Made by a program: the position numbers
Assembly: GCA_965205425.1 (NCBI GenBank)
Contig: CBDBGZ010000009.1
Location: forward strand, 576,001-640,000
DNA: 64,000 bases
Direction: 5' to 3'
From: Nitrosopumilus sp.
GTDB lineage: Archaea; Thermoproteota; Nitrososphaeria; Nitrososphaerales; Nitrosopumilaceae
Part shown: piece by piece, positions 9,001 to 24,000 of the stretch
How positions within the stretch are numbered: the first letter of the stretch is position 1
How the letters are laid out: every line of letters begins with the position of its first letter

Positions 9001-12000
9001 AACTTTGAAATTTGTTACATCTTCACCTACGGCTATTACATCTCCAGCTACATCAGAACCAGAAACGTGTGGAAGAGGAACTGCAACTGGCACTCCTCTC
9101 ATTCCCCAAATATCATTATAATTTAGGGCAGATGCTTTATTGGTAAAAATTACCTCATCTGACTTTGGTTTTGGTTCATCTATATCCTGGACTTTGAGGA
9201 TTTTAGCATAATTATCATCTGGTGCATATTCATTGTATACAACGGCTTTCATGAGTTAACGAAAATTGTTTCTAAATTTAAATTTTTTCTGATTTATACT
9301 CGATTTATCTTAAAATCACGTTTTGGTTGCTGTGTAGAGAGTAAAATTTGCTTTAATTGATCGTCACTAATTTGGCCAGGTAACTTTCCTTGAGTTGCCA
9401 TACCGATCAAATATTGTTCAACCATATCAGATAACTCAGGTTTCACCATTTTGATATTGTTTAGTCTACTTCGAGCTTCAGGGGTTAGAACTTGCTTTAG
9501 AATTTGCTCTTTTTGTGCAGCTAATTCATGATTAGTGTTATCGATAGGTGGTTGTTCGTTAGAATCTGGAAAATCCATTTTTAATCTAAGAATATACTTT
9601 TAGTTGTGGGTTTTCAACAATTAGTTCTTTAAGAATTTCTGTTGATAGTCTATCAAGTTTTTGCATTCCTTGTTTAGAAACTATACGGCCTTTCTTCTCA
9701 ACTTTTTCTAAATAGCCAAGTTTTTCTAGTCCTTGAATTGCATTTCTAATAATTGCACCACTAGCATCTTTATGATGTGCAGCGCCATATCCAGAAGGTT
9801 TACCACCGCCATAATCATTTCTTAAAGCATTAATTCCAATTGGACCATTAAGGTAAATTTTTCTCAAAATTGAAGCACATCTTGTATGCCACCATTCTCT
9901 ATTTTGTGGAGGTTTATCTGCATGAGCTCCAGTTTTAACAAATGGAGTCCATGAAGGTGCAGGAATATCTTCATTCTTTAATGCTGAAGATAGTCTTTCT
10001 ATCAATACATCTGCGGGTACATCGTATACCTTTGCCATAGAGTGAAAAACTCGATAATCGTCTTATAAATCATTGAGATATAATTTTACGATAAGTATGC
10101 CCACACAAGTTACAAGAAATTCTGATCGACTTGACTGACGCCCTACCTAAACGAATTCTAGAATTTATTCCAGGTGCAATAAAGGATTTACATTTTTTAC
10201 AGAAAACCATTCTAAGATAATATGGCATTCTAATTTTATGTCTGGTGCTAATTCTTCTAGCAATAGATGCTTGCCTCTGAGAAAGTTCAGGATTTATCCT
10301 TGCATTACTAATTGCATTTTCGATAAGAATTTCCATTCTCTCCATTGCAATTTTTTTTGTTCCAAGTTTCACAATGGTATCTAAAAGTAGACCTAAAAAT
10401 TGGTTCTTATAAGAATTGAAAAATGCAGTCAGCGGGATTCGAACCCGCGTCACAGGGTTGGAAACCCCGAATACTAACCAGGCTATACTATGACTGCAAT
10501 AGAATGCAAATTTTATTTCCTACATAAAAATTTTGTACTGTTACAGAAAATTCAAATTCATCTAGATAATATTGTTGTATAAAATTGATATAATAATTTG
10601 ATAATTGTATCACGTATTTATTAGATTCCTAGATTGTATTAAGTCTTTTTTCTAGTCTTGTTTGTATTACAATATTTTTTCTTCTATTCATACAAAACAA
10701 TCACCAACGAAAATAAACTCCAACAATTATTTTTTCCAAAATATTTCCAATAAACCTAACCAATGCGTTGGAGTTTGTTGGAGTGATTTTCTATGCCTAC
10801 AAAATCTGTATTTCTATGCCTAGAAGTCCAAGTTAGTAATGTTTCAACGAATGACAATAAAGTTGGAACTCCAACAAAATTCAGTTTTTTATTAGTGATG
10901 ATGTTAAAAATGATTTATTCTTCATTGTAATTCCAAATAATATTTCATACAAAATAAAACAAATGTATTTTTTCCAATGCTATCTAAATATTCGAGTTGT
11001 AAATTATTTATTGATTTTATGTATCTGTTTGTAAGATTTGTTTTTGTATTGTGTCTTGTTTTTCTTTCTCTTTTTCTCTCCTTTTCATATCTCGTTTCTT
11101 CATAATATTTTTTATCGTTACACCAAGCATACCTGCTCCTCCAAATATTTTTTTGATTTTTGGATCATTGATTTTATCACCCAATAACAGCTTCAAAGAA
11201 GCAACAAGATCTTTTTCTTCACTTTCTGTCAATTCTTCATTGTCTGGAAACATTATAGATATTAACGAATTTACAACTCTTGCTATGCTGGAATAATCTT
11301 CTTCATTTGTACTAGTTTCTGATAGTTTGATGGTTTTAGGTATGGTTACAATAGAACCAGATGTATTTTCAGATGGCTCACAAACTAGTTTAGATGATTT
11401 ATCGTTTATTGTTACTGGCTTTGTGTCCACTTTGATATCTAATGTATTACTGTATCTTTTTGCCTGTCTTTGTGGAAAAAATTCATTCATATCCATGCCA
11501 TCTTTTTTGACTAGTTTTTTTAGTTCTCGATTGAAGATTGAAGCCACACTAGCACGATTTTTTTCTTGTTCCTGTGCTATTTTCTCAATATGATTAGCTT
11601 TTTCTCTAGGATTTACAAGATGGTTTAGATCATCAATATTTGATAAATAATCTCGGATTATATCAGTTAGAGATTCATTTTTCATTTGATCTTTTCTTCT
11701 CCGTCATTTCGGCATAGTTGATTCATCATTGATATATATTAGTAGACTTTTAATATATGTCTACTATTTTTTAGATAATGGAACATGAATTAACAGCATT
11801 TGAGAAAAAGATATTGGATTTTCTCAAAGGTCATTATAACCAACAATTTGCCATTGGAAAACAAACAAAGACTGAAACCAAAAGACTATCCAAAGCAAAA
11901 AACGACATCATATCCAAAATGACAAGTTCTATGAATGCATTTATGATATTATCTGAGATAATTAGAATATCTAACACAACATCAGATAGAATATCTGAAA

Positions 12001-21000: not shown

Positions 21001-24000
21001 AGCTTACCTTCAAAGGCTTGCTTTAGCACGCTGTTCTTCAACATATTCAAGCTACTAGAAGATGACTTGACCTGCGATGATAACATCTCAAGCTGTATCT
21101 TTGCTGCATCAATCTGTGTGAAGATTGATTCAATTTTTGAGACGATGCGTTTTTGTTCGTTTAGTGGTGGAAGTGGAACCACTACTTGTTTTATTTTTTC
21201 TTGGCTAATGTTTTTTTGAGCTCCTCCAAAACCAATTCTTATCAAATCATTTCTTATTGATTTTAAAAATAAAAATAAATATGAATTGCTTATTATTTTT
21301 TGATTATTAAATATTGCACATATTGCTTGATTAGTTGATGCGGGAAAACCAAGAATTGATAATTTGCCTATAGTAGCTCCATACATTGCCATTAAAATGG
21401 TATTTTTAGGATGAAGCACAGCATTGGATTTTTCTAGACCCAATTGACTAATTCTTTCTTCACACTCTAAGATTATAGAATCATTTAACTCTCCTGATTT
21501 GATCCACGGCACATCTCCTTCAAAATAATTTGAATTCTTTCGTGATGGTGTACCCCCACTTTTTGTTGTACAAATCTCATCAATAGTTGTTTTAATCCAT
21601 CCTTTTGGAAGATTCTCTTTCATATCCATGCTTCCAGAGTCATAATTTCTATTTTTACCTAAATCATTCAATATTAACTGTGTAACAACTATTAAAGAAC
21701 AAAAGCAAATTGTATCAATCCTGTCTGGAGTTGATGCATACATTCAGAAAAACCAAGAATATAAGGAAAAGCTGGAGATTCTAAAAAAAGGACTTATGCA
21801 AAAATTGCTAACTGGAAAGATCCGCGTAAAGGTATGACTCTGCAAGGACATGGCTACCATGCAGGGCAGATTATCATCAAATTCTAAGGAAATTTCTAAA
21901 ACTCACTATACAAATTATAATTCTAACAAGCTACGAAAAAGCTATAACATGTTAGAGAAAGCTATGACCTTAGACCTTGAAAGCTAGTCGTCAATAGCTT
22001 GTTAAAATAACGCCTGTTAACACATTCTAGCTTCTATTGACGCTCAAAAACAGCTAGCTCACTAGCTTTAACAAAAAAGCTATAACAAAGCTAGTGACGC
22101 CTAAAACTGCATAAATTTCTAAGTGAGAAAAGACAGGTAATTTGTACATATTATGAATGGTGTAAAGCCCAGCACTAGACCATATGCTAGAAAAATCCAG
22201 GAATTAATCGATGATCATATTCGCTCTTTGCATATTTCAGAATTAATTGACCCAATGGAGATTACCTATGAGAATTTCCTTGCATTTGTTAAAAAGAAAG
22301 TAAAAAGTAAGAGAGCTTAAACTGCATTAATTAAAAACAAGGTAATCCAAGTAATTGAGGAATTAAGGGGACCAAAACAATCTAATTGCTGATTTTTTCA
22401 TTTATCAGCAAATCAGATTCAAATTCAATATATTTTTTCAACTTTTCATCTAATGTCAATCTATCATACACTAACAAATCTCTTGCCTGCTCTTGTCCTG
22501 CAAAATATTTTGCTAGATTTGGATCATGTCTTGATACTTTGGTTATAAAAAATGCCCTAAAACTGTGAGTTGTTATCTTGTGACGACCTGATTCATATTT
22601 TTGATCGAGGTTAATTCGTTTAAGATATTTGGTTAATATCAACTGATAATGATTACTAACATTTGTAGGCTTTGTCTTGCCACGGAAAAATACATAGTTC
22701 TCATCATTCAATCTTTTCAGAATTGGTTTTAGCAAAGGTGTAACCTCTTTGCTAAAAAAAGTCACTCTTGATTTCTTTGTTTTAGTTATGCTGGCAGGAA
22801 CATTTACTATTATCCTCTCCTGCGTAGTATCTAGATCTATTTTTCGTAACTGCAACAATTCTCCTCTTCTTAATCCACTGGATAGTTGTGCTAGGATTTT
22901 CAATCTATTTTTATTGTTACTCACCTCCAATATTCTTCTAATCTCTTCTTTTACTAGGGGATATTTTTCCTCATTAACTTGATGTGGAAAGTTTAGCTCA
23001 TCTGCTACATCTTCTTTTGTGATTTTTATATTATGATATCTGAGATATTTTTTCATATATGAAAAAACTGTAGGGATACTGTTTGGATAGATTCTCTTGT
23101 TATTCCAGTTGAGCCATTCTTGCAAGGATTCATAGACTGTTTCCATCTCGACTTTTTGATATTCTGTTATGGTCTCATCAATTGTTTTACCATATTTTTC
23201 CTTGCAAAATATCTCAAAATTCTTTATTGCTGATCTTATAGAATTTTGTGTACTTGTTGCTTTTGTTTGTATCATTTCCTCAAAACTCTTGCGATCTTTG
23301 GACTTTCGTAGAAAGGTAGACATTTTATTAATATCTACCATAATACCTTAAAAAGATGCCTAAAACGATTGATTTACCTACATAAAAATGGTTTTTTCGT
23401 ACTCATATAGCATTCTAGCTACTACAACATGTCCTTCAAATGGTTTATCATCAACTGAATAAAGATCTGAAATTTTATTTTGAATTGAATCAGAAAAATG
23501 TCCTTTTTGGAATCCTCCAATTACAATACAAGCATCATCCTCAACCTCTCCTGCAATTTTTTCATATGAAGATCTGTTACCTTTTGTAGAAAAACCAATC
23601 ACTTTTGATGGTTTTATTTCATCAAGTAATTCAGAAAATGTTTTATCTTCAATTTTTAATAAAATATCATCATTTGTTTTTATTTGTTTTTCTTTATACA
23701 ACTTTTCTATAACTCCCTCAAATCTATGATATGATTTAGGAATGTGAACATTTTCACTAAAAGAAATTACTTTGTCATCAAGAGTATGAACGTAAAGTTT
23801 CATTTTATTTGTAAGATATAATGGAATTGTTGTAGCTTCAAGAATTGAAAAATGTACAAGATCCGGTCGACCTCTTTTCATTTCATTTTCAATTCCTTTC
23901 ATAGCTGCAAAATGCCAAGAATTATCTAGTAAAATTTCTGACGAGTGTTTGCCAAGTTTTCTTGCATGTGAGATAACTGATGGATGATGTATTAATTCAG

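Follow-up and report, generated by a model that had tools for sequence, protein, structure and literature searches.

Probable rewiring of HsdS specificity by site-specific inversion at spacer-matched 28-bp sites in a Nitrosopumilus type I restriction-modification locus

The locus analyzed here, a type I restriction-modification (R-M) system, probably rewires the specificity of its HsdS subunit through site-specific inversion by an int1-type tyrosine recombinase, acting at 28-bp sites that pair by spacer. Every target recognition domain (TRD) of the locus ends in such a site, a dif-like sequence made up of an 11-bp arm, a 6-bp spacer, and an 11-bp arm, and the spacers differ between the sites that follow first and second TRDs. 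A single recombinase clade (int1) travels with these sites. The copy in the window, by which we mean the whole 64,000-nucleotide stretch analyzed, is partly decayed.

Boundaries and gene content of the element

The genome-wide survey's note described a 12.9-kb element bounded by two tyrosine recombinase genes, inserted just upstream of tRNA-Gly(TCC), and sharing a 13-bp core with the empty site. The ends were confirmed: the core is duplicated at 10519 to 10531 (+ strand, 20 bp upstream of the tRNA gene) and at 23377 to 23389 (+ strand), and an empty site with one core is present in 29/29 of the relatives' loci. The insertion point could be refined to the stop codon of Nep1/EMG1, which the right core overlaps, and is not in the tRNA gene. 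Only int2 (22382 to 23341, − strand) abuts an element end; int1 lies 2 kb inside. Since its homologues carry a conserved stretch that runs to the element end, int2 is likely the integrase. A tyrosine integrase at one end, a short direct repeat, and an empty site in relatives are the features by which thaumarchaeal integrated elements are recognized (PMC6563490), and the window element shows all three. The survey had further noted that contigs of three runs join across the element at an empty site. The joint in run X3 was rejected as proof of excision in this strain: its depth (1768) matches that of a divergent, co-occurring flank allele (1783).

At the left of the element are two open reading frames (ORFs) without a family, one of 222 amino acids (aa) (11017 to 11685, − strand), whose homologue adjoins int1 in locus L111, and one of 224 aa (11778 to 12452, + strand), which recurs on related elements (L034, L041, L089, L111, and L123). 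They are followed by int1 (12572 to 13504, − strand), the proposed invertase, which belongs to an hsdS-linked clade and possesses the catalytic R, HxxR, H, and Y. Upstream of int1, in an operon-like run, are the toxin gene hicA (13553 to 13756, − strand; Pfam PF07927) and a small antitoxin-like ORF (13790 to 14002, − strand) that has no family match and that, by its position and likeness, is probably hicB. The same hicA-int1 order is found in L071, L072, L078, L079, L080, L091, and L152. Gene coordinates and strands bore out the reported layout hsdS->hsdR->hsdM<-hsdS, with hsdS2 at 14056 to 15303 (+ strand), an intact hsdM at 15350 to 16828 (− strand), an intact hsdR of the EcoAI/FtnUII family at 16863 to 19229 (− strand, above the family cutoff), and hsdS1 at 20325 to 21629 (− strand). 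An IS5-family element (19392 to 20362, − strand) with a 9-bp target duplication and 21 further near-full copies in the genome lies in the nonhomologous 3′ end of hsdS1 and disrupts no 28-bp site.

Two incomplete hsdS genes

As the survey had stated, one hsdS gene has a start and lacks the C-terminal helix, and the other has the reverse defect. hsdS1 encodes a start, TRD-A, site 1, the central helix, an identical second TRD-A, and site 2, without a C-terminal tail. hsdS2 encodes a 5′-truncated TRD-B (the start and about 50 codons are missing), site 1, the central helix, TRD-C, site 2, and a 59-aa C-terminal tail. We considered truncation of hsdS1 by the IS and rejected it, because the tail is absent also when the IS is removed and the end of the gene is the same in a relative, G123 (locus L034). 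That genome agrees with what the survey had reported of relatives, as its hsdS end is truncated alike, its hsdR/M DNA is 99.3 to 99.6% identical, and it carries TRD-C, the second-position domain of the window, in first position. The start-less hsdS2 is peculiar to the window copy; in 17/17 other loci, the gene that bears the tail begins with a start codon and its first TRD is open. At 21711 to 21850 (+ strand) lie the relic of a third site, with the spacer TGTCTG, and behind it a decayed hsdS tail that belongs to the other subfamily. This site is without a partner in the window element; a half-hsdS on contig C5 (L041) has a site and a tail that match.

Spacer-matched 28-bp sites

The survey attributed the exchange of domains to a 355-bp inverted repeat and to a repeat of about 45 bp at the end of all four TRDs. 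Both repeats are real: the former is present at 92% identity, with 273 bp perfect (14353 to 14625 and 20895 to 21167), and a common 38-bp stretch was found at all four TRD ends. The acting repeat, however, is most likely the 28-bp site with its two spacer types rather than either repeat as such. The type 1 sites, at 14388 to 14415 in hsdS2 (+ strand) and 21105 to 21132 in hsdS1 (− strand), have the spacer TCACAC. The type 2 sites, at 15096 to 15123 in hsdS2 (+ strand) and 20403 to 20430 in hsdS1 (− strand), have the spacer TTGATA, and the homology of hsdS1 to hsdS2 stops 1 nt behind its site. The 2.2-Mb genome contains five perfect arm matches, all in hsdS genes, and 11 matches at ≤1 mismatch, compared with 0 to 2 in three shuffles.

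The spacer rule was evaluated on the 16 Nitrosopumilus loci (14 genomes) that possess four sites, a count that leaves out L091 and L086, with three sites each, and all other loci without four. Inverted partner sites have the same spacer in 32/32 cases, with 9 and 8 different spacers among the 16 loci. Re-pairing the spacers within a subfamily gave a mean of 9 and a maximum of 20 matches in 20,000 tries, a permutation that overstates independence because the loci are related. Partner sites are inverted in 16/16 loci. In every locus, the homology of one hsdS breaks off immediately after site 2, where identity falls to 0.46 and then to 0.30. Among held-out loci of other genera, 5/9 have an hsdS with sites, and the spacers match in 5/6 partner pairs, the mismatch being in L156. 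The same DNA arms encode two different peptides in two HsdS subfamilies.

Flipping might instead proceed by homologous recombination or gene conversion between the repeats, through RadA and with int1 as a passenger, which we regard as improbable. Site 1 is often embedded in a long perfect repeat (273 bp in the window and 189 bp in L072), and pneumococcal long repeats still invert without PsrA, at a lower rate (PMC7096588). TRDs also pass from one of positions 1 and 2 to the other (TRD-A twice in the window; TRD-C in G123 and L079), which is impossible by spacer-matched inversion and resembles the "domain movement" described in PMC3077401. Yet the site-2 partners of most loci have only the 28 bp and a few bases in common, and neither palindromic arms nor a tie to one recombinase clade is expected from homology alone. 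RadA recombination may supplement int1 activity rather than replace it.

The int1 clade and the sites

The exact site pattern occurs in 18/151 genomes (reversed control, 0), and 15 of these 18 also have an int1-clade gene, which 22 genomes carry in all. An hsdS gene lies ≤5 kb from 27/46 int1-clade genes versus 2/98 more distant homologues, and from 19/29 versus 1/20 when 4 kb is present on both sides; 19/46 int1-clade genes, including 10/29 with full flanks, have no hsdS within 5 kb. Post-TRD segments scoring ≥15 of 16 make up 37/37 in int1 loci and 5/23 in loci without int1, a control that covered one of the two site-bearing subfamilies. Some site-bearing hsdS genes (L074, L086, and L101) have no int1 within 20 kb. 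A metagenome scan with int1 alone as the query gave no match; with an int1 alignment it gave 80 loci, of which the 3 at ≥52% identity have no hsdS within 5 kb. In a quick tree that included no bacterial invertase, the nearest kin found were thaumarchaeal integrases, and PMC8138268 gives no class for int1.

In the window, int1 is 552 bp from hsdS2 and has conserved catalytic residues, which makes it an adjacent invertase homologue in the sense of Huang 2020. Two more marks of an inverton in that definition are seen: one type I locus holds at least two hsdS genes in opposite orientation, and the repeats within hsdS are inverted such that a flip leaves the reading frame intact. The definition further includes inversion within a population, for which exact recombinant proteins were obtained from L072 only, and a distinct methylation motif for each allele. 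We infer that int1 catalyzes inversion; int1 and int2 probably do different jobs. A role at the 28-bp sites for a different recombinase, whether int2 or the XerA of the chromosome, is highly improbable. In its favor, the sites have the geometry of dif, archaeal XerA can bind stem-loop sites unrelated to dif, though with lower affinity (PMC8371274), and int2 is present on the window element and several relatives. The exact pattern is absent from 133/151 genomes and is therefore not a general dif site, so the host dif was rejected as its identity. Within 20 kb, int2 is in or beside only 4/16 four-site loci (the window, L034, L037, and L089), compared with int1 in 16/16 by selection, and the homologues of int2 have a conserved stretch that reaches the element end.

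Predicted states and observed recombinants

Because the partner sites are inverted, the segment between them would flip, and because one hsdS loses homology behind site 2, a single C-terminal helix would be common to the two genes and be moved by inversions with or without TRD2. A site-2 flip would pass only this tail to the other hsdS; a site-1 flip would pass the central helix, TRD2, and the tail. An intact locus could thereby exist in four states, and in each of them a single complete HsdS would be encoded, with a TRD pair unlike that of the other three. For the window, the survey's expectation that inversion builds a complete hsdS and changes specificity was upheld by modeled single flips, which yield full-length A/C or A/A subunits with a tail (about 470 aa); the assembled and double-flip states would be without a complete HsdS. 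Only these two products are predicted, since hsdS2 has lost its start and TRD-A occurs twice in hsdS1. Its suggestion that target domains can be shuffled holds in that inversion alters TRD pairing, but free shuffling of four was overstated for this copy: with hsdS1 TRDs identical and the first TRD of hsdS2 truncated, two are usable. The hicAB pair may have a role in the switch, and the tail-less subunits may have a phenotype.

Recombinant products were found for a relative. Three predicted inversion products of L072 match stored public proteins exactly over 447, 456, and 468 aa: P0145, P0246, and P0135 are its site-1, site-2, and double-flip products, with zero mismatches, on separate contigs of 16, 5.5, and 111 kb. 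The site-2 crossover is confined to about 54 bp holding the site. These proteins could be assembly mis-joins at repeats. In a second family, 17 stored proteins combine first TRDs, second TRDs, and tail or no tail, and P0252 and P0250 are identical over 409 aa and diverge at site 2. Loci with 88 to 94% identical HsdM occur in opposite states (L085 and L091 versus L072, L079, and L092). True recombinants were obtained for only L072 among 18 loci tested, and when the clusters of 30 sequences were examined, only those of P0140 and P0126 held alternative alleles, with 6 sequences absent as given.

None of 238 stored proteins from the HsdS search is a recombinant of the window alleles. The runs consist of contigs, and the modeled flips create no new 31-mer, so the reads neither show nor exclude inversion of this copy. 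The joint from 15108 to 14506/21014 was rejected as an inversion signature, as it is explained by a G123-type allele, in which TRD-C precedes a variant central helix that matches exactly over 35 bp at 14500. The family may once have flipped and the window copy be a frozen relic, a reading that we hold to be possible though not favored. It is suggested by the lost start of hsdS2, the IS5 inside, the identical hsdS1 TRDs, and the lack of a flipped allele among those found; yet int1, hsdR, and hsdM are all intact, the four sites show no departure from the arm consensus and have matched spacers, and either single flip yields an open gene of full length. This reading concerns the window copy, not the family, and overlaps with int1-driven inversion as the best explanation; the window copy may still flip.

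It is likewise conceivable, if somewhat doubtful, that tail-less and start-less subunits act as homodimers with palindromic targets, leaving no OFF state, which would change the output of the locus and not the flipping. Type IC half-subunits of EcoR124I, EcoDXXI, and NgoAV dimerize via one helix (PMC3874165), and the two helix regions in the window are identical at 45/70 residues. Type IC truncations, however, drop most of TRD2, whereas those of the window retain TRD2 and gain a junk end; the review cited describes no homodimers of this kind beyond type IC, and the window HsdR is EcoAI-like.

A bolder and rather unlikely extension is that the invertase int1 arose by domestication of a thaumarchaeal integrase and can swap cassettes, too, where sites have matching spacers, with hicAB-int1-site as an integron-like platform capturing TRD modules or whole R-M cassettes. 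Hints of such capture are the lone sites by int1, mostly with hicAB and little or no hsdS (L112, L118, L123, and L126); the occurrence of a single recombinase clade with HsdR/HsdM types that are unrelated and with many gene orders; an outer pair of relic sites that encloses the G123 cassette; and at least 15 proteins with common tails and first TRDs and many second TRDs.

Comparison with bacterial switches

In the Mycoplasma pulmonis hsd loci, both hsdS genes are complete, and the gene order is hsdS-hsdR-hsdM-inverted hsdS. The survey had likened the window to this layout, and hsdR-hsdM does lie between inverted hsdS genes there, but the arrangement is only one of several in the archaeal family and a minority one; in many loci the two hsdS genes enclose int1-hicAB, an arrangement also seen in pneumococcal ivr/tvr. 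The window also differs in having one tail for two genes. Two site classes are common to the window and M. pulmonis hsd1/hsd2 (vip and hrs sites), where the recombinase HvsR is encoded elsewhere (PMC5149525 and PMC7672463), unlike the hsdS-linked int1.

By analogy, the archaeal switch would work like these loci and pneumococcal ivr/tvr. Streptococcus pneumoniae tvr (SpnIV; TvrR, TvrAT; PMC6265443) resembles the window in having a tyrosine recombinase and a toxin-antitoxin pair by shuffled hsdS parts and two repeat types, one behind each TRD, with an 11-bp core in common. It differs in its direct repeats, excision-reintegration, and phd-doc pair, in contrast to the inverted 28-bp palindromes with two spacers, the hicAB pair, and the single moved tail of the archaeal locus. 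S. pneumoniae ivr/cod (SpnD39III, PsrA/CreX) and the Streptococcus suis four-way switch likewise combine inverted hsdS copies, a locus-encoded tyrosine recombinase, and nested inversions giving several specificities, but only one of their hsdS genes is expressed, the spare copies serving it as silent donors, and their repeats lie before or between TRDs (PMC7096588 and PMC7394358). In the archaeal family, a start is normally retained in both hsdS genes, and what the spare one lacks is the C-terminal helix. Xer/dif sites have the same 11-6-11 geometry, with cleavage expected at the spacer edges (PMC8371274); the window sites differ in lying within genes, in numbering four per locus and falling into two classes by spacer, and in their proposed use for inversion rather than dimer resolution.

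REBASE surveys list archaeal type I loci with two hsdS genes (4 and 11 loci of Euryarchaeota that have an invertase homologue), as well as a Nitrosopumilus maritimus SCM1 locus with a 39-bp inverted repeat at the 5′ ends and no invertase; the methanogen invertases (Table S7) are 55 to 64% identical to the clade-2 query TvrR (PMC7672463 and PMC7394358, sections available). The same sections mention neither a tested inverton nor 28-bp sites among these archaeal candidates. For archaea, the literature found gave only such survey listings and a remark that archaeal invertons have hardly been studied (PMC10028968).

Significance

In host-associated bacteria, it is established that recombinases can switch restriction specificity. 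The archaeal family offers a probable enzyme, the exact sequence of its site, and a simple pairing rule by which sites with the same spacer are partners, so that one gene and a reporter plasmid would be enough to test for programmed DNA inversion in an archaeon. An int1-type recombinase, whose one arm pair occurs in nature with at least 17 spacer variants, could also serve as a tool. For ammonia-oxidizing archaea, the switch would provide bet-hedging against viruses and a switchable methylome.

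Integration site and gene content of the element

A 13-bp core marks each end of the element (10519-10531 and 23377-23389). Between the cores, hsdM, hsdR, an IS5, hsdS1, and int2 (a second tyrosine recombinase, 22382-23341) lie on the minus strand and hsdS2 on the plus strand. The other genes, on either strand, are int1 (the tyrosine recombinase proposed as invertase, 12572-13504, minus), hicA with a probable hicB, and two divergent ORFs of 222 and 224 aa (11017-12452), which match no Pfam or NCBIfam family and recur on related elements. The Nep1 flank was matched in 124 genomes of the genus, and in each of the 29 best relatives' loci, which were inspected, there is a single core, and 33-34 bp separate the flank from tRNA-Gly. 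Hence the stop codon of Nep1 is where the element has inserted, which bears out the genome-wide survey's note of an integrative element with an empty site and a 13-bp core. Four of the int2 homologues checked share another location, where a similar core, again AT-rich, is reached by a conserved stretch, and in the relative G123 this element occupies a site that is empty in the window's genome. The likely integrase is int2. A relic sister element in the window's genome (contig C5, 116080-120855) holds an int2 fragment, IS5, the 224-aa ORF, and half an hsdS with a third site and a tail (the C-terminal helix region of HsdS); it matches the G123 element's left part at 96-98% identity.

The two hsdS genes of the window copy

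The start of hsdS1 is present, and its two target-recognition domains (TRDs) are identical (100% over 125 aa); in runs X2 and X3 the depth across TRD-A fits two copies, which weakly supports a real duplication. Homology between hsdS1 and hsdS2 stops directly behind the second TRD of hsdS1, with the IS in place or removed, so the description of hsdS1 as a gene with a start but no C-terminal helix holds. IS5 was rejected as the cause of the truncation because the end is unchanged without it. The same end is found in G123 and in a third element (P0309). The companion claim, that hsdS2 has the C-terminus and lacks the start, is correct for the window copy, in which a 59-aa tail is present and the first TRD is reduced to its last part, but not as a family trait: in 17/17 other loci the tail-bearing gene has at least 149 codons from the start to site 1. 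By this comparison the loss is peculiar to the window copy, which is partly decayed. At the G123 locus, which has two first-position copies of TRD-C, one copy has its frame broken by a single extra nucleotide within a short run of Gs (L034, 7030-7060); the insertion is either real or an assembly error.

A 28-bp site with paired spacers

Every TRD is followed by a 28-bp imperfect palindrome, and all five perfect arm matches in the window's genome fall within hsdS genes. Spacers were compared in 16 loci from 14 genomes, each with four sites and int1. The central 6 bp were identical in 32/32 pairs of same-number sites in the two opposed genes, with slightly varying arms (0.95-0.99), whereas the site 1 and site 2 spacers of a locus differ at 2-5 of 6 bases (9 and 8 spacers among the loci). 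In 20,000 tries, sites re-paired within their type and subfamily matched 9 times on average and never more than 20 times, compared with the 32 observed, an optimistic contrast in that the loci are related. Tyrosine recombinases are known to need spacer identity. Behind site 2, identity persists for 0-13 nt before dropping to chance level in the 16 loci, one hsdS running into the helix and its partner into unrelated sequence. The two HsdS subfamilies translate the same arms into different peptides, which lie at unlike distances from a conserved EQ motif; this points to selection on the arms as DNA. The 11-6-11 geometry is shared with dif sites, which are cleaved at the spacer edges (PMC8371274).

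Nine int1 loci of other genera, fetched after the site analysis, served as a held-out test: five had site-bearing hsdS and four did not (three of these on short contigs), and spacers matched in 5/6 partner pairs. Separately, one or two sites lie beside int1, mostly with hicAB and with little or no hsdS remaining, at L111, L112, L118, L123, and L126. Degenerate site-like palindromes occur in a conserved stretch near int1 at L034 (13960, within a small ORF resembling a second hicB), L072 (8999), L079 (10596), L081 (3955), L083 (4670), L091 (8748), and L128 (10585). Upstream of hicAB-int1 in L091 (5999-7084), an N-terminal part of an int2 is fused in frame to an incomplete TRD that has a site at its end.

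Distribution of the hsdS family and the int1 clade

HsdS domain searches matched 45/151 genomes of the genus, and 40 HsdS regions were fetched and mapped together with the first five loci. Many carry two opposed hsdS genes and a close int1 homologue, often with hicAB. The segment encloses hsdR and hsdM in the window, L034, L037, L081, and L083, and hsdM alone in L089; int1-hicAB lies between the two hsdS in L071, L072, L079, L080, and L152. The HsdR/HsdM proteins of these loci fall into at least three unrelated types (<35% identity to the window's).

Extra TATA-binding protein genes, unusual cargo for a defence element, lie beside hsdS or int1 in L037 (11537-12076), L071 (6655-7212), L081 (5396-5935), L082 (5588-6169), L085 (17512-18051), and L088 (6337-6888), and also in L116, L118, and L155. 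Defence-type cargo (TIR, NucS-like, HEPN, Mrr, and YgjP-like peptidase genes) was seen in or beside the segments of L077, L079, L083, L085, L091, and L092. Opposed hsdS pairs with 70-275 bp inverted repeats but neither the 28-bp site nor int1 (L073, L075, L084, L087, and L093-L095; with the repeat at the 5′ ends and flanking hsdM in L093 and L094) are possibly a second kind of switch.

Genes of the int1 clade (at least 53% identity) were read from the search in 22/151 genomes of the genus and in 7 genomes from five other genera of the family; among 400 genomes sampled, none from another family of the class gave a match at 1e-80. The exact site pattern occurs in 18/151 genomes, 15 of them int1 carriers and the other three with one site each. 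An hsdS lies within 5 kb of 27/46 clade members, 16 of the 46 having first been found via hsdS, versus 2/98 more distant homologues. A quick tree was built from 100 rows (members at least 52% identical, and others for which one side had 4 kb of flank), with int2 serving as outgroup. In it a single branch (SH-aLRT 98) unites 41 rows, 28 of the 34 with labels among them, and is placed among thaumarchaeal integrases. Of 72 GTDB matches, 71 bear archaeal titles (Nitrososphaerota, Thaumarchaeota, or Thermoproteota); the exception is a contig of 3 kb from a bacterial bin. The clade probably arose independently of bacterial invertases, none of which is in this tree.

Inversion states and proposed mechanism

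The runs holding the window locus are contigs, and modelled flips yield no new 31-mer, so contig comparison cannot tell flipped from unflipped. At the sister locus L072, where the assembled genes are P0244 and P0140, six recombinant products were modelled, and stored proteins match three of them without a single mismatch, each on its own contig: the site-1 flip (P0145, 447 aa), the site-2 flip (P0246, 468 aa), and the double flip (P0135, 456 aa). Each of the four states thus has one gene to represent it. The crossover at site 2 can be placed within ∼54 bp that hold the site. Mis-assembly at the repeats may instead have produced these proteins; recombinants came from 1/18 loci, and none was found for the window among 238 stored proteins (best 120 matches per search). 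In a second group of 17 stored proteins, a first TRD of type A or F is joined to any of several second TRDs, and one tail is either present or absent; the A-B combination is both tailed and tail-less. Loci with 88-94% identical HsdM were found in opposite states.

In the mechanism we propose, int1 would invert the DNA between same-spacer sites, passing one tail, with or without TRD2, between the two hsdS genes; the tail corresponds to the second helix of the coiled coil (PMC3874165). In the window copy, a site-1 flip would give A/C plus tail and a site-2 flip A/A plus tail, both ∼470 aa. After a flip hsdR-hsdM would point towards hsdS1 and depend on a promoter of their own; that they have one is suggested by the varied orientations among loci. 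The assembled window state has no complete HsdS, but half-subunits of type IC enzymes can dimerise (PMC3874165), and it is therefore not certain that this state is OFF. For TRDs to switch between positions 1 and 2, a second route would be needed, probably recombination at conserved flanks (PMC3077401). By analogy with TvrAT (PMC6265443), the hicAB pair may damp int1 expression.

Our literature searches, thin on subscription papers, found no paper on hsdS inversion in Nitrososphaerota. In the parts consulted, Huang 2020 (PMC7672463) reports invertons of Euryarchaeota and enters N. maritimus without an invertase, Atack 2020 (PMC7394358) gives a 39-bp repeat for that strain, and PMC10028968 gives 12 putative archaeal invertons, none from the phylum of Nitrosopumilus by the datasets named; the word “inversion” is absent from the main text, as available, of PMC6563490, PMC11033074, and PMC10609329. 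The window locus follows the same logic as bacterial hsdS invertons but differs in its apparently archaeal recombinase clade, dif-like two-spacer sites, and movable tail. Its layout is real, and for the sister locus there is database evidence of every one of the four states.
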